DNA of 64,000 bases from an uncultured Vicinamibacterales bacterium (lineage in GTDB: Bacteria > Acidobacteriota > Vicinamibacteria > Vicinamibacterales > JAKQTR01), in NCBI GenBank assembly GCA_964481395.1, contig CAYZYG010000002.1:6060-70059 (forward strand), read 5' to 3'. Of the stretch, positions 11,472 through 25,082 are shown in pieces. Each line of letters opens with the position of its first letter. Within the stretch, counting starts at the first letter, position 1. The notes beneath the pieces are model-generated. The model was not told the origin of the DNA and did not search any database. It was given only the letters and a program-made list of their open reading frames with translations. A program made the position numbers and the translations under genes.

Positions 11472-12885
11472 TCACTCCTCGTGCCCGAGGCCGCCCCTGA
11501 TCCCGTGCTTGCGCATGAGCATCTGGAAGTTCTGCCGCTGGATGCCGACGTCGGCCGCGGCGTGGGTGACGTTCCAGCCGCTCCGCTCCAGAGCCTCCAC
11601 GACGAATTCGCGCTCCAGGTCGGCCACGGCCCGCTCGCGGAGCTGCCGCTTGAGCGCCAGGAACTCCTGGTTGGTCCTGGGGATGTCGAGATCGGCCGGG
11701 AGGGACTGGCGAGTGAGGACCCGGGGCAGGTGTCTCGGTTCGACAATGTCGCCGTCGCAGGCGATGACGGCGCGCTCGACGGACGCCTCGAGCTGTCGGA
11801 CGTTGCCGGGCCAGTCGTACTGCTCGAGGAGCCGCAGCGCATCTTCCGAGAAGCGATCCACCTGTTTGCCGCTGCGTTCCCGCGCGCGGCCGAGGAGGTG
11901 GCAGGCCAGCAGTGGAATGTCCTCGCGCCGGTCGCGCAGGGGAGGCAGGTAGATGGGGAACACGTACAGCCGGTAGTACAGGTCCTCGCGGAACGTGCCT
12001 TCGCGGACCATCTTCTCGAGATCCCGGTTCGTGGCGAAGACGAGGCGCACGTCCACCTTGCGGGGCTGCGTGCCGCCGACGGGCAGGAACTCGCGCTCCT
12101 GGATGAACCGCAGCAGCCGGGCCTGCACGTCCACGTCGACGTTGCAGATCTCGTCGAGGAACACGGTGCCGCGGTCGGCCGCCTCGAAGATGCCGCGCTT
12201 GTCGTGCACGGCTCCCGTGAACGATCCCCTGACGTGTCCGAACAGCTCGCTCTCGAGCAGGTTGACGGCCAGCGCGCCGCAGTCCACGGCGAAGAAGCGT
12301 TCATGGCGGCGGGGACTCAATGCGTGCACGGCCCGTGCGACGAGTTCCTTGCCGGTCCCCGTTTCGCCGACGATGAGGACGGTGCTCGAAGTGGGGGCGA
12401 CCTTCCGGATGAGCCGGTACACCTCCAGCATCTTGGGGCTGCCGCCCACGAGGCCCGCGAAGATGGCCGGATCCTGGCCAGACGCCGGCGTGATGCCGCG
12501 CGACCGCAAAATCTGCTGACGGCGCTCCCAGGCCTTGCCCGCCACGGCGGCCATTTCGGCCGGGGTGAACGGCTTCGGCAGGTACTCGAACGCGCCGACC
12601 TTCATGGTTTCGACGACCGAGGCGATGGTGGCGAACCCGGTGATGACGACGGGCACGATGTCGGGAAAGCTGCTGCGCAGCACGCCGAGCAGTTCCATGC
12701 CGCCCAGTTCGGCCATCTTGAGGTCCGTGAACACCACGTCGTACGTCCCCTCGGCGAGGTGCCTGAGGGCGTCGGCCCCGCTGGTCACGGTGGTGACGGC
12801 GTAGCCTTCGCGCGACAGGATCTTCTCGCAACTCCGGCAGATGGCCGGCTCGTCATCGACGACCAGCACGCGGGGTCCGTTGAGG

Positions 12886-12896
<11 letters not shown>
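11472..12896 (-). CDS. sigma-54-dependent response regulator (NtrC family)
   Basis: ORF 11472..13157 trimmed to ATG 12896 (MTSNLNGPRVLVVDDE). REC domain, AAA+ motifs GETGTGKE, ESELFGH and GSFTGA, and a C-terminal Fis-type HTH. The ATG lies inside the last codons of the kinase gene (GTCGATGACGAGTAA). Confidence 0.95.
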
Positions 12897-14996
<2,100 letters not shown>

Positions 14997-15003
<7 letters not shown>

Positions 15004-15626
15004 GCCCTGAGCCCGTCGTCCCTCGGCCAGGCTCGGGACGATCCCGAGTGTGTCGAAGGGGCGACGGTCGCGGCTTCGTCGGGCAGGCGGAACGCGCCCA
15101 CCCGTACGGTGTCGAGTGCCGCCAGCACCGCGTCTCGCGCGGCGGGCACGGCCTCGGCCACCGCTGTTGTCAGCGCTTCGCCAATCGACTCCATGTCGTC
15201 GACCTCCACCGCAACCACATGGATCCGATCCGGGAGCGGCACGCCCGACTGCCGGCCGAGCCGCATCACCGTGGGCAGACCCGCCGCGTGCGGGGATGGT
15301 CCCGAGTCTCCGCGCAACGCCTCGAAGGGCATCGAGAGGACGGTGCCAGGGGGATGCGAACCCGTCCGCACGGCATCGACGACGACGGCGGCATCGAAAC
15401 CGGTCAGCTCGTCGAGAAGGTAGAAACCCGAGAGCGGGGTCTTACGCACGACGACTGACTGGGACCGGGGACCGGGGACCAGGGACCAGGTCAGTCTCGC
15501 TTCCACCGCGTCCGCGACGGCCCATCCGACGCCATCGTCGCGCAGCAGGTCGTTCCCAAGGCACAGCACGACGACTGCGCCTTCGGCACAACTGGTCCCC
15601 GATCCCTGGTCCCCGGTCCCTGTCAT
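14997..15626 (-). CDS. [NiFe]-hydrogenase maturation endopeptidase (HybD/HycI/FrhD family)
   Basis: ORF trimmed to ATG 15626, which forms an ATGA overlap with the large-subunit stop. VVVLCLGNDLLRDDGVGWAV and VVVDAV...PGTV motifs. The N-terminus and an internal loop are encoded by heptad repeats. Confidence 0.85.
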
Positions 15627-17092
15627 CCGCCGCCCCTCGACACGGTCTTCAGTACCGCCCCGCGGCGGTCCCTGACGACCGCCCTCAGCGGCATTTCGCC
15701 GGGCAGCGAGTGCGTGGCGCAGCCGAAGCACGGGTCGTACGCGCGAAAGGCCATTTCCACCTGGTTGAGCAGACCGTCGTCGACCCGGCCGCCGTGGATC
15801 ACGCCCTTCGCGGCCTTTTCGATCGACATCTGGATGGGCGCCGCGTTGTGCACGGTGGCGACGACGAGGTTCACCATCGTGAGGATCCCGTTGGGGTCCG
15901 TGGCGTAGTGGTGGATGAGCGTCCCGCGAGGCGCTTCGACGATGCCGATGCCCTCCGTGGGAGCCTGGTCCGGGAGCCTGCGGACAACCGGATCGCCGAT
16001 TTCGGGATCGTTTGCCAGCGCCTGAACCGTTTCCGTCGCCTGGAGCGCTTCGATCAGGCGTGCCCAGTGGGTGGCCAGCGTGTTGTGCATCGGCTTGCCG
16101 CCGAGTATCTGCACCATCTGCTCGTAGTGCTCCTGCGCGCGGGGCGTGGCCATGCCGTCCGCGACGTTCAGGCGGGCGAGCGGAGCGACGCGAAACACGC
16201 CGCTCTCCGATCCGTCGACGAAGCCTTTCCAGCCGGGCCGCTTCAGGAACGGGAACTTGATGTACGACCAGGGCTCCACGTGCTCACCGATGTACTTCAA
16301 GTAGTCGGGCGGGTCGAATTCGGCCACACGCACGCCGGACGGATCGACGACCCGCAGGCGCCCCCGGTAGAAGCTCACGCGGCCGTTCGCGTCCACCGTG
16401 CCCATGTAGTGCGTCCGATGCGCGTAGTGGTCCGCCAGGATCGTGTCGACGTAGGCCTGGTTCTTCAGCACGATGTCGGCGAAGGCCTGGAGCGAGAAGG
16501 CCGCGAAGTCCACCAGTCCTGGCGCGGCCGCCTTCAGCCGCTCGACCGTTTCGGCCTTGAGGGGCTTGCTGATTCCGCCGGGCAGGCCGAACACCGGGTG
16601 AATGGTCTTTCCGGCCATCTCGGCCATGAACCCGCGGGCGACCTTGCGCGCCTCGATGACCTTGCCGCCGATCTCGAGCCCCACTTTGCCGATCACGCCC
16701 ACGACGTTGCGTTCACCAGCCGGCGCCGACGGGCCGACGACAAAGTCGGGGCCGCCGAGGAAGTAGAAGTGCAGCGTGTGGTCCTCGAACATGAACAGGT
16801 TGTAGAAGAGTTCGCGGACCTTGTGCGCGGCCGGCGGCGGGTCGACGTGGTACAGCGCGTCGAGGGCCCGGGCCGAGGCCATGTGGTGTGCGGACGGGCA
16901 GACGCCGCAGATGCGCTGCGTGATGCGCGGCATCTCTTCGGCCGGCCGGCCGAGGCAGAACCGCTCGAATCCGCGCAGCTCGGGGATCTGCATGTACGCG
17001 TTGGCGACTTCGCCGCGGTCGTCGAGGAAGATCTCGATCTTGCCGTGGCCTTCGAGGCGCGTGATGGGGTCGATCGTGATGCGCTGAGTCAT
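15623..17092 (-). CDS. mvhA: [NiFe]-hydrogenase large subunit, group 3 (Mvh-like by context)
   Basis: MTQRITIDPITRLEGHGKI. RICGVCPSAHH and C-terminal DPCFGCATH ligand motifs, followed by a 28-aa cleavable tail. ATGA overlaps at both ends. Confidence 0.93.
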   Translation of the reverse strand: MTQRITIDPITRLEGHGKIEIFLDDRGEVANAYMQIPELRGFERFCLGRPAEEMPRITQRICGVCPSAHHMASARALDALYHVDPPPAAHKVRELFYNLFMFEDHTLHFYFLGGPDFVVGPSAPAGERNVVGVIGKVGLEIGGKVIEARKVARGFMAEMAGKTIHPVFGLPGGISKPLKAETVERLKAAAPGLVDFAAFSLQAFADIVLKNQAYVDTILADHYAHRTHYMGTVDANGRVSFYRGRLRVVDPSGVRVAEFDPPDYLKYIGEHVEPWSYIKFPFLKRPGWKGFVDGSESGVFRVAPLARLNVADGMATPRAQEHYEQMVQILGGKPMHNTLATHWARLIEALQATETVQALANDPEIGDPVVRRLPDQAPTEGIGIVEAPRGTLIHHYATDPNGILTMVNLVVATVHNAAPIQMSIEKAAKGVIHGGRVDDGLLNQVEMAFRAYDPCFGCATHSLPGEMPLRAVVRDRRGAVLKTVSRGGG

Positions 17093-18538: not shown

Positions 18539-20290
18539 CTACGACACCAGGACGCCCTCGATCTCGGCCATGATCTGGGCGTCGGTGAAGTGATGCTGCT
18601 GCGCGGCATGCGACGGGCAGGCCGCCACGCACGTGCCGCAGCCCTTGCAAAGCGCCTCGTTGAGCTGCGACACCTTCTTGTCCTTGTTGAACTCGATCGC
18701 GCTGAAGGGGCAGAGCGGCACGCAGACCTGGCAGCCGGAGCACAACGTCTCGTCGATGTGGGCCGTGTACGCTTCGAGTTCGACCTCGCCCTTGTCGATG
18801 AGCGCCATCGCCTCCGCGGCGGCGGCGCCCGCCTGAGCCACCGTATCCGGGATGTCCTTGGGGCCCTGCGCGCAGCCGGCGATGAAGACGCCATCCGTGA
18901 AGGTCGAGACCGGCGCGAGCTTGGGGTGCCGCTCGAGGAACCAGCCGTCGCTCGAGCACGACATGTTGAAGAGGCGGCGCACCTCGGCGGCGTCCTCACG
19001 CGCCTCGAGGCCGGTCGAGAGGATGACCATGTCGACGGGGATCCGCCGGACGAGGCCTGCCAGCGTGTCCTCGGCGCGGATGACGAGCTTGCCCTTCTCC
19101 ATGAGCGTGATGGCCCAGTCGGACACCTCGGCGACCCGACCGCGGATGAACTCGACGCCTTCGGCGAGCAGCCGGTTGTAGAACTCCTCGTAGCCCTTTC
19201 CGGGGCTGCGCATGTCGATGTAGAAGTTGTAGACCTTCGCGTGGCTGCGCTCGTGGACGAGGTGCGCCAGCTTCAGCGAGTACATGCAGCAGACCCGCGA
19301 GCAGTACTCGTGCGTGTTCTTGTCGCGCGAGCCGACGCAGTGGATGATGCCCACCGACTCGGGGACGCGGCCGTCCTTCAGCAGGACCTGGCCGTTGTTC
19401 GGCCCCGAGGCGTTCACCATGTGCTCGACCTGCAGGGCCGTGAAGACGTTGGGGTACAGGCCGTAGCCGTACTGCGGCACCTTCTTCGCGTCGACGGGCT
19501 GGAAGCCGGTGGCGACGATGATGGAGCCGACCTTGACCTCCTCGTGGCGGTCCTGCTGGCCGTGGTCGATGGCCTTGGCCTCGCAGGCCGTGGCGCACAC
19601 GCGGCAGCCGTCGGTCTTGAAGTGGATGCACGAGTCGGCGTCGATCACCGGCTGGTGGGGCACCGCCTGCATCGTCGGGATGTAGATCGGCGTGAGCGGC
19701 CCGAGCGGCAGTTCGCTCCGGATCTGCTCCGCTTCGCGCTCGATGGTGATGCAGCCGGTGGGGCAGACGTACGCGCAGGCCCCGCACGCGATGCACTTCT
19801 CGGAGGGCTCGTCGAAGGCCGTCCCGACGTAGCGCGTCGTGCCGCGGTTGAAGAAGCCGAGCACGTGGGCGCCGACGACGTCGGAGCAGACGCGGACGCA
19901 CAGGCCGCAGAGGATGCACGTGTCGTCGCCGCGGCCGAAGCGCGGCTCCTCGATGCCGTACTCCGCGGCCAGATCGGTGAGAACCTTCACGTGGCCGCAT
20001 CGGGCGAGCATCCACTCGAGGATGAGCTTGCGCGTCCGTCGCACGCGATCGGTCTGGGTGAAGACCTGAATGCCGTCGGTGACCGGGTAGTTGCAGGCGG
20101 TCACCATGCGGACCCGGCCGCGCATGTGAACCTCGACCGTGCAGATGCGGCACACGCCGTAGGGCTCGAGCAGCGGGTGATGGCACAGCGTGGGAATCCT
20201 GACGCCGGCCTTCTGCGCCACCTGCAGCAGCGGCGTGCGGTCCTCGGCTTCGGTCCTGATGCCGTCGATCGTGACTGTCACGAGCTTCAT
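18539..20290 (-). CDS. fusion protein: HoxU/NuoG-like 2Fe-2S + 2x[4Fe-4S] N-terminus joined to the C-terminal half of HdrA
   Basis: The first roughly 190 aa contain LCHHPLLEPYGVCRICTVEV...ACNYPV (2Fe-2S), CILCGLCVRVC and CIACGACAYVCPTGC. The rest aligns by eye to HdrA from the second motif of its inserted ferredoxin domain (PIYIPTMQAVPHQPVIDADSCIHFKTDGCRVCATAC) through VGSRD...CSRVCC to the C-terminal ferredoxin domain (CSGCQVCVPLCP, CKGCGTCVAACP). Confidence 0.88.
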   Translation of the reverse strand: MKLVTVTIDGIRTEAEDRTPLLQVAQKAGVRIPTLCHHPLLEPYGVCRICTVEVHMRGRVRMVTACNYPVTDGIQVFTQTDRVRRTRKLILEWMLARCGHVKVLTDLAAEYGIEEPRFGRGDDTCILCGLCVRVCSDVVGAHVLGFFNRGTTRYVGTAFDEPSEKCIACGACAYVCPTGCITIEREAEQIRSELPLGPLTPIYIPTMQAVPHQPVIDADSCIHFKTDGCRVCATACEAKAIDHGQQDRHEEVKVGSIIVATGFQPVDAKKVPQYGYGLYPNVFTALQVEHMVNASGPNNGQVLLKDGRVPESVGIIHCVGSRDKNTHEYCSRVCCMYSLKLAHLVHERSHAKVYNFYIDMRSPGKGYEEFYNRLLAEGVEFIRGRVAEVSDWAITLMEKGKLVIRAEDTLAGLVRRIPVDMVILSTGLEAREDAAEVRRLFNMSCSSDGWFLERHPKLAPVSTFTDGVFIAGCAQGPKDIPDTVAQAGAAAAEAMALIDKGEVELEAYTAHIDETLCSGCQVCVPLCPFSAIEFNKDKKVSQLNEALCKGCGTCVAACPSHAAQQHHFTDAQIMAEIEGVLVS

Positions 20291-20321
20291 CTCGGCCTCC
20301 AGCGCCTCGAGTGACCGGCTC

Positions 20322-22238
20322 TCACACCCGCAGGATGGCGTCGCGCTTGCACGCCTCGATGCAGGCGCCGCACTTGATGCACAGGTCCTGCTTGAGCAGG
20401 TGGGGGTACTTCACCTGGCCGGTGATGGCCCCCGTCGCGCACACGTTCACGCACGCATGGCAGCCGTCGCACTTCTCGGCCACGATTTCATAGTGGATAA
20501 GCGCCTGGCAGACCCCCGCCGGGCAGCGGTGCTCGCGGATGTGCGCGAGGTACTCGTCCCGGAAGTACCGCAGCGTCGAGAGCACCGGGTTCGGGGCCGA
20601 CGTCCCGAGCGCGCACAGGCAGGCGTCCTGCATGACGCCGCCCATCTCCTCCAGCAGGTCGAGGTCGCCCTCGTCGCCCTTGCCGTCGCAGATGCGCTGG
20701 AGCACGTCGAGCGAGCAGCGCAGGCCCTCGCGGCAGGGCGTGCACTTGCCGCACGACTCCTCGGTGAGGAAGGCGATGAAATAGCGGGCGACGTCCACCA
20801 TGCAGGTATGGTCGTCCATGACGATCATCCCGCCCGAGCCCATCATCGACCCCGCGGCCGTCAGGCTGTCGAAGTCCACCGGCATGTCGAGCAGCGACTC
20901 CGGGAGACAGCCGCCGGAGGGGCCTCCGGTCTGCACCGCCTTGAACGTCCGCCCGTGCGGAATGCCGCCGCCGATGTCGAAGATGATCTCGCGCAGCGTC
21001 ATGCCCATGGGCACTTCGATGAGCCCGGTGTTGTTCACCTTGCCGACGAGCGAGAACACCTTGGTGCCGGAGCTGCCGTTCCAGGGGTTCTCGCCCACCT
21101 CGCCGGTGCCCATCGAGGCGAACCACTCGGCTCCCCGGTTGATGATGAGGGGCACGTTCGCCCACGTCTCGACGTTGTTCAGGTTCGTCGGCTGGTTCTT
21201 GTAGCCGTACTCGACCGTGTGGATGTACTTGGCCCTCGGCTCGCCGACACGGCCCTCCAGGGACGCCATGAGCGCGGTCGACTCGCCGCAGACGAACGCG
21301 CCGGCACCCTGAACGACCTCGATGTCGAAGCTGAAATGCGTGCCGAGAATGTCCTGGCCGAGGAGCCCGCGGTCGCGCGCCTGTGTGAGGGCGATCCCCA
21401 GACGCTCGCGCGCGATCGGGTACTCGTGCCGGATGTACACGAAGCCCTGGTGCGCGCCGATCGCCCGGGCGCCGATGATCATGCCTTCGACGACGGCGTG
21501 CGGATCGCTCTCGATGATGCTGCGATCCATGAACGCGCCGGGATCACCTTCGTCGGCGTTGCAGACGACGACAGGGTCGACGCCCCGGTGCAGGGCCGCC
21601 TGACGGCACGTGGCCCACTTGATGCCGGCCGGGAAGCCCCCGCCGCCGCGCCCGCGCAGCCCCGAGAGCTTGATCTCGCGGATGATTTCGTCGGCGGTCA
21701 TCTGCGTCATCGCCCTGACCAGGGCGGTGTAGCCGTCCCGTGCGATGTAGTCCTCGATCCGTTCCGGGTCGATGATGCCGCGGTTGCGCAGCGCGACCAG
21801 CCGCTGCTTCGCGAAGAACGGGATCTCGGCCAGGGCCGGCACGGGCGCCGGCGCGCCGGGGGGCGTGTACATCAGCTTCGGCACCGGGCGATGGCTGACG
21901 AGGTGCTCCTGCACCAGCGTCGGCACGTCCTTCTCTTTCAGGCCGCAGTAGAAGACGCCGTCCGGCTGGACGATGGCCACGGGGCCCTCGGCGCAGAAAC
22001 CCTGGCATCCGGTGCGAACCACCTGCACCTGGTCGTGAAGGCCGTGCTTCGCGATCTCGCGCTCGAGCGCGGCCTGCACCGGCAGCGACGAGCAGGACAC
22101 GCATCCCGTGCCGGCGCAGACGAGCACGTGGGCGCGGCAGGGCGAGCCAGCCGCGGGCGGTCCACCCGTCCGCAGGGCGAGCGTCGGCGCGAGCTCGGCC
22201 CGCAGCCGCTTCAGTTCGTCGATGGTGAGTCTGGGCAT
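20322..22238 (-). CDS. NuoF/HoxF/HydB-like NAD(P)H-binding FMN iron-sulfur flavoprotein
   Basis: ORF trimmed to ATG 22238 (MPRLTIDELK). GLRGRGGGGFPAGIKW (FMN), NADEGDPGAFMDR (NADH) and ESCGKCTPCREG (4Fe-4S). N-terminal thioredoxin-like 2Fe-2S domain. C-terminal CDGCHACVNVC and CIKCGACIEAC. Confidence 0.93.
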   Translation of the reverse strand: MPRLTIDELKRLRAELAPTLALRTGGPPAAGSPCRAHVLVCAGTGCVSCSSLPVQAALEREIAKHGLHDQVQVVRTGCQGFCAEGPVAIVQPDGVFYCGLKEKDVPTLVQEHLVSHRPVPKLMYTPPGAPAPVPALAEIPFFAKQRLVALRNRGIIDPERIEDYIARDGYTALVRAMTQMTADEIIREIKLSGLRGRGGGGFPAGIKWATCRQAALHRGVDPVVVCNADEGDPGAFMDRSIIESDPHAVVEGMIIGARAIGAHQGFVYIRHEYPIARERLGIALTQARDRGLLGQDILGTHFSFDIEVVQGAGAFVCGESTALMASLEGRVGEPRAKYIHTVEYGYKNQPTNLNNVETWANVPLIINRGAEWFASMGTGEVGENPWNGSSGTKVFSLVGKVNNTGLIEVPMGMTLREIIFDIGGGIPHGRTFKAVQTGGPSGGCLPESLLDMPVDFDSLTAAGSMMGSGGMIVMDDHTCMVDVARYFIAFLTEESCGKCTPCREGLRCSLDVLQRICDGKGDEGDLDLLEEMGGVMQDACLCALGTSAPNPVLSTLRYFRDEYLAHIREHRCPAGVCQALIHYEIVAEKCDGCHACVNVCATGAITGQVKYPHLLKQDLCIKCGACIEACKRDAILRV

Positions 22239-22261
22239 CGGTCGTCTCCCTCGCGCGCCGA

Positions 22262-22741
22262 TCAGTGCGCCGTGGGCTTGTAGTCCTTGACGTACTTCTT
22301 CAGCATCCGCGGGATGCCCGCCTGCTTGATCTTGCCGTGCACGTCGGTGCCCACCGTGATCACCGGGGCGAGCCCGCAGCAGCCGAGGCAGTTCACCGTG
22401 TCGAGGCCGAACTCGAGATCGGGCGTCGTTTCGCCCTTCTGGATGCCCAGTTCGCGCGTGAGGGCATCGAGCAGGCGCGGGGCGCCCTGCACGTGACACG
22501 CGGTGCCCATGCAGACGTGGATGCGGTGCCGGCCCATCGGCTTCAGGCTGAAACCGCGGTAGAAGGTGGCGATGCTGAGCACCGACGTGACAGGGGTCTG
22601 CACCCGGGCCGCGATCGCCTCCAGGACCTCGCGGGGCAGGTAGCGGAACTCCTCCTGGCAGTCGAGGAGGATGGCGATGAGGGCCTCGCGGCGCCCCTCG
22701 TGCCGATCCACGATGCCGTCGACCGTGCTGAGGTCAATCAT
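22262..22741 (-). CDS. NuoE/HoxE-like thioredoxin-fold [2Fe-2S] subunit
   Basis: ORF trimmed to ATG 22741, which forms an ATGA overlap with the upstream stop. IAILLDCQEEFRYLP, VCMGTACHVQG and CLGCCGLAP. Confidence 0.9.
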   Translation of the reverse strand: MIDLSTVDGIVDRHEGRREALIAILLDCQEEFRYLPREVLEAIAARVQTPVTSVLSIATFYRGFSLKPMGRHRIHVCMGTACHVQGAPRLLDALTRELGIQKGETTPDLEFGLDTVNCLGCCGLAPVITVGTDVHGKIKQAGIPRMLKKYVKDYKPTAH

Positions 22742-23613
22742 GTCCGCGCTCCCTGGGGCGCGCCGGCCGGCGCCGGCGTGCGCCCGATCACCCTGGTGCC
22801 CATCCGGATCACGCGCGTGGCCGGTATGCGGCGGGCCGGGCACGCCTCCCAGCACGCACCGCAGCCCGTGCACTTATCCGTGTCCACGTAGCTGGCCTTG
22901 CGCCTGACCTTGACCGTGAAGTTGCCGATGAACCCGCTCACCTCTTCGACCTCGCTGTAGGCCATCAGGTGGATGTTCGGGTGTTTGCCGACCTGCGTCA
23001 TCTTCGGCGTGAGGATGCAGGCCGCGCAGTCCAGCGTCGGGAACGTCTTGTCGAAGTGCGCCATGTGGCCGCCGATGCTCGGCTCGCGCTCGACCAGGTA
23101 CACCTGCTTGCCGGCCGCGGCCATGGTCAGGGCCGCGGAGATGCCGGCGATGCCGCCGCCCACGATGAGGACGTTGGGGTTGATCGGCGTCTTCGACCGC
23201 TCGAGGGCGTGGTGCAGCGCGACGCGGCGGACCGCCGCGGTCAGCAGGAGGCGCGCCTTCTGCGTGGCCCGGTCCGCGTCCGCCGTCACCCACGAGACCT
23301 GTTCGCGGATGTTGACCATCTGGTAGAGGTACGGGTTGAGGCCCTGGTCCTCGAGGACGGCCCTGAACGTCGGCTCGTGCATCAGGGGAGAGCAGGAGGC
23401 CACGACGAGGTGGGTGATGCCCGCGCGCGCGATGTCGTCCTTGATCAGCTGCTGCCCCGGGTCGGAGCACATGAACTTGTACGTCTTCGCGAGCGCGACG
23501 TTCGGCAGGGTGGCGGCGTACTTCTGCAGGGCGTCGACGTCCACGCGGCTCGCGATGTTCAGGCCGCAGTGGCAGATGTAGACCCCGATGCAGCAGGTGT
23601 CGTCGGCTGGCAT
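22738..23613 (-). CDS. hdrA: heterodisulfide reductase subunit A, N-terminal half only
   Basis: IGVYICHCGLNIASRVDV, VVASCSPLMHEPTFR, VLIVGGGIAGISAAL (FAD) and DKTFPTLDCAACILTPKM. It ends just after the first ferredoxin motif (DKCTGCGACWEACP) plus a 32-aa tail. Confidence 0.9.
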   Translation of the reverse strand: MPADDTCCIGVYICHCGLNIASRVDVDALQKYAATLPNVALAKTYKFMCSDPGQQLIKDDIARAGITHLVVASCSPLMHEPTFRAVLEDQGLNPYLYQMVNIREQVSWVTADADRATQKARLLLTAAVRRVALHHALERSKTPINPNVLIVGGGIAGISAALTMAAAGKQVYLVEREPSIGGHMAHFDKTFPTLDCAACILTPKMTQVGKHPNIHLMAYSEVEEVSGFIGNFTVKVRRKASYVDTDKCTGCGACWEACPARRIPATRVIRMGTRVIGRTPAPAGAPQGART

Positions 23614-23632: not shown

Positions 23633-24499
23633 CTAGGCCATCACCGGCAGCGGGGCTGCCGTGACGAAGTTGCGGTGCAGCCCCAGCGACGCGGGCGACA
23701 GGCCGAACGCCACGCCCATGAGCTGGGTGAAGTAGGCCACCGACAGGTGCGCGTCCTCCCTGAAGGCGCGCGTCATCTTGTCCTGGTAGGCCTCGAGATT
23801 GAACTGGCACAGCGGGCACAGCGTGGCGACGACGTTGGCGCCTCTGGTCTTGGCTTCCTTCAGCAGAAGGAAGGTGAGCCGCACGCCGATGTCCTCCATC
23901 GTGCCCATGAGCGAGCCGCCGCAGCAGCGGGCCTTGAGGGGATAGTCGACGACCCGGGCGCCAAGCAGGGGCATCAGGCGTTCGAGCGATGTGGGGCGCA
24001 GCGGGTCGTCGAAGGTGCCGTACGGGCGGACGACTTGGCAGCCGTAGTACGGCGCCACCCGGAACTCCGAGAGCGGCCGGACGACCTTTGCACGGATGAG
24101 CGCCGGGTCGACGTCGTTGACGAGGATGTCCAGCGGGTGGCGCACGGACAGGTGGCCCGTGTAGGCGAGGCCGACCGTCGCGAGGCCCTTCCGCACCTTC
24201 TCGGCGACGTGCGGGTACTCGGCCATGGCATGCTGAGCCTTGACGAGCACCAGGTAGCAGGCGGCGCACGGGGCCACCACCTCGCGGCCCAGCCGTTCGG
24301 CCATCGCCAGGTTGCGTGCGGCGAGCGCCACCGCCTTCTGCTGGCGGACGGACATGTAGGACGTGGCCCCGCAGCAGTTCCAGTCCTCGAGTTCCTCGAG
24401 CCCGAGGCCGAGGTGCGCGAAGATCGCCCGCAGCGACTCGTCGTACGGCTTGCCGAGCCCGCTCAGCGAGCAGCCGGGGTAGTAGGTGTAGGTGGTCAT
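23633..24499 (-). CDS. hdrB: heterodisulfide reductase subunit B (two CCG domains)
   Basis: YYPGCSL, DWNCCGATS, PCAACY, YYGCQ, KARCCGGSL and CPLCQFN. Confidence 0.9.
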   Translation of the reverse strand: MTTYTYYPGCSLSGLGKPYDESLRAIFAHLGLGLEELEDWNCCGATSYMSVRQQKAVALAARNLAMAERLGREVVAPCAACYLVLVKAQHAMAEYPHVAEKVRKGLATVGLAYTGHLSVRHPLDILVNDVDPALIRAKVVRPLSEFRVAPYYGCQVVRPYGTFDDPLRPTSLERLMPLLGARVVDYPLKARCCGGSLMGTMEDIGVRLTFLLLKEAKTRGANVVATLCPLCQFNLEAYQDKMTRAFREDAHLSVAYFTQLMGVAFGLSPASLGLHRNFVTAAPLPVMA

Positions 24500-24500
24500 C

Positions 24501-25082
24501 TCACGATTCCTCCACCGAGTCGAGCACGGCCTTGAGCTGCTCGGGGTGCTGGATCCGTTCCTGGCCGAGGACCATGCGGCCCGTCCTGAGCAGCTTGAGA
24601 CCCTGGGGGGCCATCCTCAGAAGACCGAGCGGGTTCGTCTTCATGGCCAGCTGGATGACGAGGCGCGACTCGGAGTTGCGTCCGTGCCTGGCGACCATGT
24701 CGTAGAACGAGCGGGCCAGCACCGGAATGGGGAACCGCTTCGGGTACATGCCCTTCTCGATCGCGCGCCGCTTGATGGCGTACATCAGGTCGGTGACCTT
24801 GATGCCGCGCGGGCAGCGGACCTGGCACTCGTAGCACGAGGCGCAGAGCCACGGCGTGGCCGACTGGAGCACGTCGCGCTCGAGGCCGGAACGCGTGAGC
24901 GCGATGAGCCGCCGCGGCGTCAGGTCCATGTACACCGACATCGGGCAGGCGCCGCTGCAGGTGCCGCACTGGATGCAGTCCCGGAGGGCTTCGCCGCCCA
25001 GCTTCGCCATGACCTCGGCCGGGAACGCCGGGTTCACGTCCTCGGCGTACCGACAGTGGGTCGTTGCCTGTTCCACGACCAC
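24501..25082 (-). CDS. hdrC: heterodisulfide reductase subunit C (2x[4Fe-4S])
   Basis: CIQCGTCSGACP and CASCYECQVRCP. One nt separates it from hdrB. GTG start, which is uncertain. Confidence 0.85.
   Translation of the reverse strand: MVVEQATTHCRYAEDVNPAFPAEVMAKLGGEALRDCIQCGTCSGACPMSVYMDLTPRRLIALTRSGLERDVLQSATPWLCASCYECQVRCPRGIKVTDLMYAIKRRAIEKGMYPKRFPIPVLARSFYDMVARHGRNSESRLVIQLAMKTNPLGLLRMAPQGLKLLRTGRMVLGQERIQHPEQLKAVLDSVEES

Follow-up and report, generated by a model that had tools for sequence, protein, structure and literature searches.

A nine-gene operon with hdrA on two reading frames

We analysed a stretch of 64,000 nucleotides (nt), here called the window, from an uncultured Vicinamibacterales bacterium (GenBank assembly GCA_964481395.1, contig CAYZYG010000002.1, positions 6,060 to 70,059), in which nine genes on the minus strand form a tightly packed operon from 25082 to 15623 (Table 1). 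They encode HdrC- and HdrB-like subunits, the N-terminal half of HdrA, NuoE- and NuoF-like proteins, a fusion of a NuoG-like N-terminal part to the C-terminal part of HdrA, an MvhD-like adaptor, and the small and large subunits of a [NiFe]-hydrogenase. The intergenic gaps are, in order, 1, 19, -4, 23, 31, 51, 1 and -4 nt, and the stop codon of the HdrA N-half overlaps the start codon of the nuoE-like gene (ATGA). A trait of group 3c hydrogenases is present, in that the MvhD adaptor adjoins the small and large subunits and is encoded with hdrABC. HdrA itself is carried on two open reading frames (ORFs) 2.4 kb apart, with the nuoE- and nuoF-like genes between them, and the same arrangement is found in 32 related loci. 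The ORF positions on the minus strand are as given in an earlier note on this DNA, which had been made from the sequence alone.

We mapped the break in HdrA by phmmer comparison with PDB chains, and domains by Pfam. Residues 9-261 of the N-half correspond to residues 14-267 of the HdrA chain 8rvu (E 1e-93), the match stopping two residues past the first CxxCxxCxxxCP motif, and residues 196-581 of the fusion protein correspond to 8rvu residues 276-653 (E 7e-114), from the (A)IYIPFPQAVP segment ahead of motif 2 to the end of HdrA. The two matches do not overlap, and about eight reference residues lie in neither. Because of these matches we place the break between the two cysteine motifs of the 2x[4Fe-4S] ferredoxin domain that is inserted in HdrA, which is where the earlier note had put it. 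The N-half ends in DKCTGCGACWEACP (C248-P259) followed by 32 further residues, again in agreement with the note; Pfam finds a single Fer4 half-site in it (242-260), and a complete ferredoxin domain is ruled out by the presence of only one four-cysteine motif. As also predicted, the C-half resumes inside the same domain: residues 200-242 of the fusion protein are PIYIPTMQAVPHQPVIDADSCIHFKTDGCRVCATACEAKAIDH, and both the (A)IYIPxxQAVP segment and the four cysteines of motif 2 are retained.

The FAD domain is split too, with the GGGIAG sequence in the N-half (Pfam FAD_oxidored/NAD_binding_8) and the remainder, including C318/C330/C334/C335, in the fusion protein, where the C-terminal HdrA ferredoxin domain is also recognized (Pfam Fer4_7/Fer4_21 at 510-562). 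The C-terminal part of the fusion protein is matched by phmmer to the HdrA chains 8rvu, 5odc, 7bkb and 9sfi. HdrA chains are also its top Foldseek matches, with 46-49% identity between the C-half and solved HdrA in the structural alignments. N-terminal to the HdrA part, Pfam identifies a Fer2_4 domain (3-80) and a NuoG/Nqo3-type ferredoxin domain (123-182), which bears out the note's claim of a HoxU/NuoG-type [2Fe-2S] domain and two 4Fe-4S motifs ahead of the C-half.

Table 1. Genes of the operon and features of the divided HdrA, in reading order (aa, amino acids; residue numbers are those of the protein named)
Feature	Position	Strand	Evidence
HdrC-like subunit, 193 aa, two 4Fe-4S motifs	24501..25082	-	Pfam Fer4_8/Fer4_17
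HdrB-like subunit, 288 aa, two CCG domains	23633..24499	-	Pfam CCG, E 9e-25, two stretches
HdrA N-half, 291 aa: N-terminal cluster domain, first part of FAD (GxGxxG) domain, ferredoxin motif 1, tail	22738..23613	-	phmmer
Ferredoxin motif 1, CTGCGACWEACP (C248, C251, C254, C258, P259)	22837..22872	-	DNA read; homologue conservation
Tail motif, ARRIPATRVIRMGTRVIGR, N-half residues 260-278, specific to stand-alone N-halves	22780..22836	-	homologue conservation
Variable tail end, N-half residues 279-291, and stop codon	22738..22779	-	length and sequence differ among homologues
NuoE/HydC-like BfuC, 159 aa, thioredoxin-like [2Fe-2S]	22262..22741	-	Pfam 2Fe-2S_thioredx, E 4e-47
NuoF/HydB-like BfuB, 638 aa	20322..22238	-	Pfam and full-length phmmer; start codon chosen
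Fusion protein, NuoG-N-terminal::HdrA-C-terminal, 583 aa	18539..20290	-	Pfam, phmmer
Short BfuA (NuoG/HoxU N-terminal) part, fusion residues 1-190	19721..20290	-	Pfam Fer2_4 and Fer4_Nqo3, phmmer, Foldseek
Junction and second half of the HdrA inserted ferredoxin domain, fusion residues 191-245	19556..19720	-	aligns to HdrA 276 onward
Ferredoxin motif 2, CIHFKTDGCRVCATAC, in fusion protein	19583-19630	-	
Remaining HdrA, fusion residues 246-583: rest of FAD domain with 4Fe-4S site (C318, C330, C334, C335), C-terminal 2x[4Fe-4S] domain (C517-C558)	18539..19555	-	phmmer, Foldseek
MvhD-like [2Fe-2S] adaptor, 139 aa	18068..18487	-	Pfam FlpD, E 8e-54; phmmer to MvhD chains 8rvu_F and 5odc_D, E ~1e-49
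[NiFe]-hydrogenase small subunit, MvhG-like, 325 aa	17089..18066	-	Pfam Oxidored_q6; position shared by all related loci
[NiFe]-hydrogenase large subunit, 489 aa	15623..17092	-	phmmer to 7t2r_D, E 2e-112, and 5odc_F, E 3e-105

The inserted module and its origin

Judged by domain content and best matches, the NuoEFG-like module appears to be a bifurcating one of Bfu/HydBC type, in which BfuB is complete, BfuC is present and BfuA is short and resembles WorA. By Pfam, BfuB has 2Fe-2S_thioredx (32-107), Complex1_51K (FMN/NADH), SLBB, NADH_4Fe-4S and two Fer4 domains (581-632), and phmmer matches it end to end to the bifurcating HydB/BfuB chains 7t2r_B (E 7e-231), 7q4v_B, 9mqx_B, 8a6t_B and 7p5h_B. 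The N-terminal [2Fe-2S] and C-terminal 2x[4Fe-4S] domains of BfuB are missing in non-bifurcating NuoF/HoxF (Schut et al. 2022, PMC9304861). The BfuA part most resembles the WorA chain of WorABCSL (9mqx_A; phmmer E 1e-40; Foldseek root-mean-square deviation 1.6 Å over 181 columns). Its cysteines include those of the A1 [2Fe-2S] site (C36/C47/C50/C66) and of two CxxCxxCxxxC motifs (A2 and A4; cluster naming as in PMC12318220 and PMC9304861), and no His-ligated A3 motif (HxxxCxxCxxxxxC) is present in residues 80-120 of the fusion protein, which contain C98 alone. A3 is found in Type 3 BfuA, not in Type 2 or WorA. Electrons in Bfu enzymes travel from the third-substrate module through A4, A2 and A1 to BfuBC (PMC12318220); the fusion polypeptide passes from its A2/A4 domain straight into the second half of the HdrA ferredoxin insert.

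Three kinds of related locus bear on how this arrangement arose. HdrA is unsplit in 32 loci, where the gene order is HdrC-HdrB-HdrA-MvhD-MvhG-MvhA without NuoEF, and these proteins are 58-66% identical to both halves; because they share the order and lack NuoEF, the split form looks like such a sister operon with a cassette inserted in hdrA. An HdrC-like gene precedes HdrB in these sister loci and in the split loci that have enough flanking sequence. In six further loci (three from Planctomycetota, and L042, L064 and L084; loci are cited by their numbers in our survey) HdrA-N is fused in frame to NuoE, so that at the protein level the Bfu module is flanked by HdrA sequence on both sides. These HdrA-N::NuoE proteins are 420-435 aa long (L035:3362-4666, L039, L042, L047, L064 and L084). 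Lastly, an HdrA in L077 (7724-11068) has an NfnB/GltD-like insert (Pfam Fer4_20 and Pyr_redox_2) directly after motif 1, which is the split site. There are in-frame inserts of about 1.4-1.5 kb at this site in L067 (27-3368) and L050 (12014-15397), the Pfam assignment being for L077 alone; all three HdrAs are continuous polypeptides of about 1115-1130 aa. The insert-bearing HdrA of L050 lies immediately downstream of a split-type gene set. An NfnB-like insertion at the same site of HdrA is known from HdrA9-11 of ANME-1 archaea (Chadwick et al. 2022, PMC9012536).

The earlier note's view that a domain had been inserted at the level of the operon is strongly supported by the intact sister operons, the HdrA-N::NuoE fusions and the NfnB-like in-frame insert at the same site. 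By comparison of these loci, an ancestral bacterial hdrCBA-mvhDGA operon would have gained a hydC-hydB-hydA' cassette inside hdrA, exactly between the two cysteine motifs of the inserted ferredoxin domain. In most relatives this cassette includes a HydS-type regulatory set as well, and the presence of that set between HdrA-N and NuoE is a further point for the insertion. From the 5' piece would have come an N-half that stands alone and has acquired a conserved hairpin tail, or in some lineages an N-half::NuoE protein, and the 3' piece would have been fused in frame behind the iron-sulfur (FeS) domain of BfuA, in the place that the H-cluster domain has in HydA.

The nearest relatives (up to 89% identity) have a regulatory cassette of about 3.9 kb between HdrA-N and NuoE (L007:3590-7437; also L001-L005 and L009-L012). 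It encodes DRTGG, HATPase_c, a HydS-like sensory [FeFe] hydrogenase, DRTGG, PHP and HATPase_c. We looked for a HydS-type cassette across the 64-kb window and found none; the window has the compact form of the operon. Relatives also have an extra ORF of about 127 aa between nuoE and nuoF, resembling the N-terminal [2Fe-2S] domain of the NuoF-like protein (L001:5754-6143, L003:5782-6165, L005:5743-6126 and L010:7760-8077), at the place where the window has a 23-nt gap.

Spread and conservation of the split form

We surveyed one genome per species and ran the window's proteins by tblastn on all loci. The NuoG-like::HdrA-C fusion is present in 46 species-level genomes from about ten phyla, including Acidobacteriota, Aminicenantes, Marinimicrobia, Bacteroidota/Ignavibacteria, Planctomycetota, Desulfobacterales, Nitrospirales, Sumerlaeota and Eisenbacteria, and it is always fused in frame. 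A full HdrC-HdrB-HdrA-N set lies upstream on the same strand in 32 of the 46 loci, one locus (L046) has a shortened N-half, and the remaining 13 are incomplete because the contig ends or, in L043, because of a gap in the scaffold. No locus among the 46 demonstrably has the fusion without its N-half partner, so the note's prediction that the two halves go together met no exception. We considered L043 (Fidelibacterota) as a possible counter-example, since it has no NuoEF or N-half within 10 kb upstream, but a run of N inside the gene marks a scaffold join and it is therefore not one. The closest public relatives are Vicinamibacterales (Acidobacteriota) metagenome-assembled genomes with 87-90% protein identity. 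The identical N-half protein (P0121) is found on 11 independent contigs, and full-length fusion proteins and N-halves of about 280 aa each form more than 120 clusters (at 90% identity), with identities of about 59-90%.

Some individual loci depart from the common pattern. In L046 (2424-7034) and L064, from Desulfobacterales and Deltaproteobacteria, there are no hydrogenase subunits in the stretch examined and extra HdrA-like paralogues are located downstream; in the N-half of L046 only residues 148-259 match, the N-terminal cluster domain apparently being missing. In the NCBI record of L003 (678-1560; GCA_024179025.1) no gene is called over the N-half, and the same DNA in the JGI record (L004) has the N-half called.

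We scored conservation in 85 homologues of the N-half and 96 homologues of the fusion protein. In the N-half, the four cysteines of motif 1 (C248, C251, C254 and C258) and W255 are invariant, as are C14, C16, C49, C74, C196 and C199. A conserved cysteine of the HdrA N-terminal domain (Cys197 in M. wolfeii numbering) is donated to the partner protomer (PMC9012536). Invariant residues of the fusion protein comprise the cysteines of motif 2 (C221, C229, C232 and C236), the FAD-domain cluster (C318/C330/C334/C335), the C-terminal ferredoxin domain (C517, C520, C523, C527, C548, C551, C554 and C558), and the A1 site (C36, C47, C50 and C66) and second ferredoxin motif (C166-C176) of BfuA; the first BfuA motif (C125-C135) is at least 90% conserved, and C180 of the window's fusion protein is an extra cysteine that is not conserved. 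All eight cysteines of the inserted ferredoxin domain, four per polypeptide, are invariant and are therefore under strict selection despite sitting on two proteins.

The tail that follows motif 1 in the N-half was called Arg/Pro-rich in the earlier note. Its length of 32 residues stands, but it is not mere filler, because it begins with a conserved motif of about 18 residues (259-276 in the homologue comparison, with 277-291 variable), right after motif 1, with the consensus xxx(I/V)PxxR(V/I)IRKGxx(V/I)IG. P264 and R267 of this motif are invariant, I269, R270, G272 and I276 are at least 90% conserved, and only the last 15 or so residues of the tail are variable. In the AlphaFold2 (AF2) model residues 268-271 and 274-278 form a beta-hairpin, at a confidence that is low to moderate. 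Neither unsplit HdrA nor the NuoE-fused N-halves have the hairpin motif. Among loci with a stand-alone N-half, 25 of 25 combine a CW..CP motif 1 and the hairpin with an ELPLGP-type linker of 30-32 aa and a CIHFKT-type motif 2 in the fusion protein. All six NuoE-fused loci have neither the tryptophan nor the hairpin, and have an EFDEGL-type linker of 36 aa and a motif 2 that is CVRLQT-like, not of the CIHFKT type. Features on either side of the break thus co-vary with no exception in 31 loci, a pattern that is confounded with lineage. The 36-aa linker looks more like the ancestral, HdrA-like form.

Downstream of the hydrogenase genes, on the same strand (11472-15003), are genes for a 705-aa histidine kinase of the Cache/HAMP type and a 561-aa response regulator that depends on sigma-54. 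In L001 and L005 the operon is followed by the same pair, and this points to a dedicated regulator that has been conserved. An ORF at 14997-15731 (minus strand), which overlaps the large-subunit gene, occupies the place that a HycI-type hydrogenase maturation protease has in L003 and L005.

Assembly, electron flow and significance

We propose that the nine genes encode one soluble supercomplex made of HdrC, HdrB, a two-piece HdrA, the Bfu module and MvhD-MvhG-MvhA, that its HdrA was split by insertion and re-associates from two chains, and that it would carry out tandem bifurcation. We give this reading as a whole a probability of about 0.65. The two HdrA pieces must re-associate because the FAD domain and the ferredoxin insert are both divided between them, and the division of the FAD domain means that the ferredoxin domain is not the sole basis of the partnership. 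A canonical 2x[4Fe-4S] ferredoxin fold supplies each cluster with three cysteines of one motif and a fourth from the other. Given this fold and the inventory of four cysteines on each side of the break, we infer that each cluster would be ligated by both polypeptides, one by C248/C251/C254 with C236 and the other by C221/C229/C232 with C258. AF2 models of each chain alone have a pLDDT (predicted local distance difference test) of about 90 for the BfuA part and the N-terminal domain. Confidence is low precisely where each chain holds half a ferredoxin domain (fusion 186-262, N-half 241-264) and in those stretches of the FAD domain that should pack on the partner half in intact HdrA (fusion 441-506, N-half 188-200).

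In solved Hdr complexes HdrA's inserted ferredoxin domain is the low-potential exit of the bifurcating FAD and the docking point for ferredoxin or polyferredoxins (PMC9012536; PMC13518236), and the fusion would therefore hard-wire this exit to the Bfu module. The exit would be tied covalently to BfuA (A4-A2-A1) and hence to the FMN/FeS bifurcation site of BfuBC. In the proposed cycle H2 would be oxidized by MvhAG and its electrons passed via MvhD to the HdrA FAD; high-potential electrons would go through HdrC and HdrB to a disulfide, and low-potential electrons into the Bfu module, where NAD+ and ferredoxin would be reduced. A more specific version has the joint itself as a split ferredoxin, whose two 3+1-ligated clusters, on insertion, would staple HdrA-N to BfuA::HdrA-C and couple the HdrA FAD with the FMN/FeS flavobicluster of Bfu, giving a hydrogenase-driven tandem bifurcation widespread in uncultured soil and sediment bacteria; to our minds the scales are level on this version.

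The HdrA split is real. The public NCBI record in which no gene is called over the N-half might raise the suspicion of a frameshift, of misassembly or of a pseudogenized hdrA beside an unrelated NuoEFG-type operon, but such an origin is extremely improbable when 46 species-level genomes across about ten phyla share the architecture, the exact N-half is on 11 contigs, the ligand cysteines are invariant and the tail motif conserved, the ATGA stop/start overlap indicates translational coupling, and BfuA::HdrA-C is in frame in every case. It is harder to dismiss an arrangement in which the HdrA pieces associate but do not share the insert, the last motif of BfuA, CIACGACAYVCP (C166-C176), pairing with motif 2 and leaving motif 1 as an orphan with a separate cluster or none. 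Both phmmer, in matches to 9sfi, 5odc and 7bkb, and MAFFT aligned this BfuA motif on motif 1 of HdrA (in phmmer, fusion residues 164-200, with the linker, to motif 1 and its linker), and the spacing from CP to IYIP is similar to that in HdrA. However, the ferredoxin-like domain of BfuA has its own eight cysteines (C125-C135 and C166-C176) with none to spare for motif 2, the one extra cysteine, C180, is not conserved, and BfuA superposes at 1.6 Å on WorA, where both motifs serve A2 and A4 (PMC12318220). Invariance of the motif 1 cysteines in 85 homologues would also be unexpected for an orphan. On the cysteine counts and the WorA-like fold we judged the replacement of HdrA motif 1 by the BfuA motif unlikely.

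A serious rival to our proposal, though in our view the less probable of the two, keeps the same architecture and reverses the flow: Bfu would confurcate NADH and reduced ferredoxin, and the electrons would pass through BfuA and the shared ferredoxin domain to the HdrA FAD and on to MvhD/MvhGA to evolve H2, making the complex a functional [NiFe] counterpart of HydABC, in which HdrBC would act as a redox valve or a side branch. Several points favour this direction, and the first and third of them also weigh against ours. The genes that relatives have between HdrA-N and NuoE, for a sensory hydrogenase like HydS, a kinase and a phosphatase, are of a kind typical of H2-evolving HydABC operons. Many host lineages, such as Aminicenantes, Ignavibacteria and Marinimicrobia, are fermenters. 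By phmmer the top PDB match of the hydrogenase large subunit is L of the reversible NiFe-HydABCSL (7t2r_D, E 2e-112), just above MvhA (5odc_F, E 3e-105) and followed by HoxH (5xf9_D), so the subunit appears marginally nearer to the Bfu-linked NiFe-HydL than to MvhA. Bfu enzymes are reversible (PMC5861303). It also looks energetically wasteful to pass electrons at the level of ferredoxin into a module that normally takes electrons of about -400 mV, and this weakens the direction that we propose; we are least sure, within the proposal, of the direction and of which disulfide HdrB has as its substrate. As to assembly, low pLDDT in monomer models is only suggestive as a sign of partner packing, and the co-variation across the break carries the lineage effect mentioned above. 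On the other side, HdrB and HdrC have been kept whole wherever the flank is long enough, and this speaks for disulfide chemistry as part of the cycle; electrons flowing in reverse would have to enter HdrA by what is the low-potential exit arm of all solved Hdr complexes, and the window is without the HydS cassette.

The protein families of the proposed supercomplex, HdrABC-MvhADG and Bfu/HydABC, are known. MvhADG-HdrABC of methanogens (PDB 5ODC and 8RVU) and the bacterial hdrCBA-mvhDGA operons have the same subunits, the same cluster cysteines in HdrA, HdrB, HdrC and MvhD, and the same gene order, but in the window HdrA comes as two polypeptides with the break within the inserted ferredoxin domain, and an exit that otherwise serves free ferredoxin or polyferredoxin is covalently fused to BfuA, with BfuB and BfuC. 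With short-BfuA enzymes, especially WorABCSL (9MQX), the window shares a full BfuB, BfuC and a BfuA having A1, A2 and A4 and no A3. It shares with Type 1 Bfu enzymes a third-substrate module located C-terminal to the BfuA FeS domain, like the H-cluster domain of HydA (PMC9304861); the attached module here differs in being the C-terminal two thirds of HdrA, completed by a separate polypeptide, and the main text of the Bfu classification (PMC9304861) has no BfuA type with an attached HdrA part.

As presented in the main text of that classification, there is one described complex that combines HdrA-type (BamE), HdrBC-like and MvhD-like proteins with BfuABC (BamGHI), namely Bam-Bfu (BamBCDEFGHI, a class II benzoyl-CoA reductase), for which tandem bifurcation has already been proposed; its HdrA-like protein is described there as one subunit, and no BfuA::HdrA fusion is reported in that text (PMC9304861). 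The window's operon differs in having a [NiFe] hydrogenase and, by Pfam, no aldehyde-ferredoxin-oxidoreductase-type domain, i.e. no tungsten BamB/BamC. HdrAs with an NfnB-like insert (ANME-1 HdrA9-11, and the bacterial L050, L067 and L077) resemble the split form in having a pyridine-nucleotide-linked flavoprotein module at the same site, on the low-potential arm. Their insert, however, is a single domain in one continuous polypeptide, whereas the window has a three-subunit module and its host gene is physically split. A full-text literature search found no split hdrA, no BfuA::HdrA-C fusion with an HdrA-N or HdrA-N::NuoE partner, and no link of such a form to a [NiFe] hydrogenase, although the HdrA review of Appel et al. 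2021 lay outside the search and may describe it. The split hdrA and the BfuA::HdrA-C fusion therefore appear to be new, in that we did not find them described.

If the proposal is correct, the gene fusion marks the docking site of Bfu on HdrA as the low-potential arm, and the operon provides a sequence-defined model for two bifurcation systems working in series, a coupling that until now existed only as a proposal, made for the Bam complex, which is itself poorly understood. The inserted ferredoxin domain would be a natural Fe-S domain built from two chains with cross-ligated clusters, which bears on the assembly of such complexes and on engineered split-ferredoxin switches. The halves currently receive generic annotations such as 'FAD-dependent oxidoreductase', '4Fe-4S binding protein' or 'heterodisulfide reductase subunit A'. 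Loci read as 'group 3c hydrogenase + Hdr' in Acidobacteriota, Aminicenantes, Planctomycetota, Ignavibacteria and others would have to be re-read in metabolic reconstructions, with NAD(H) as a likely partner.

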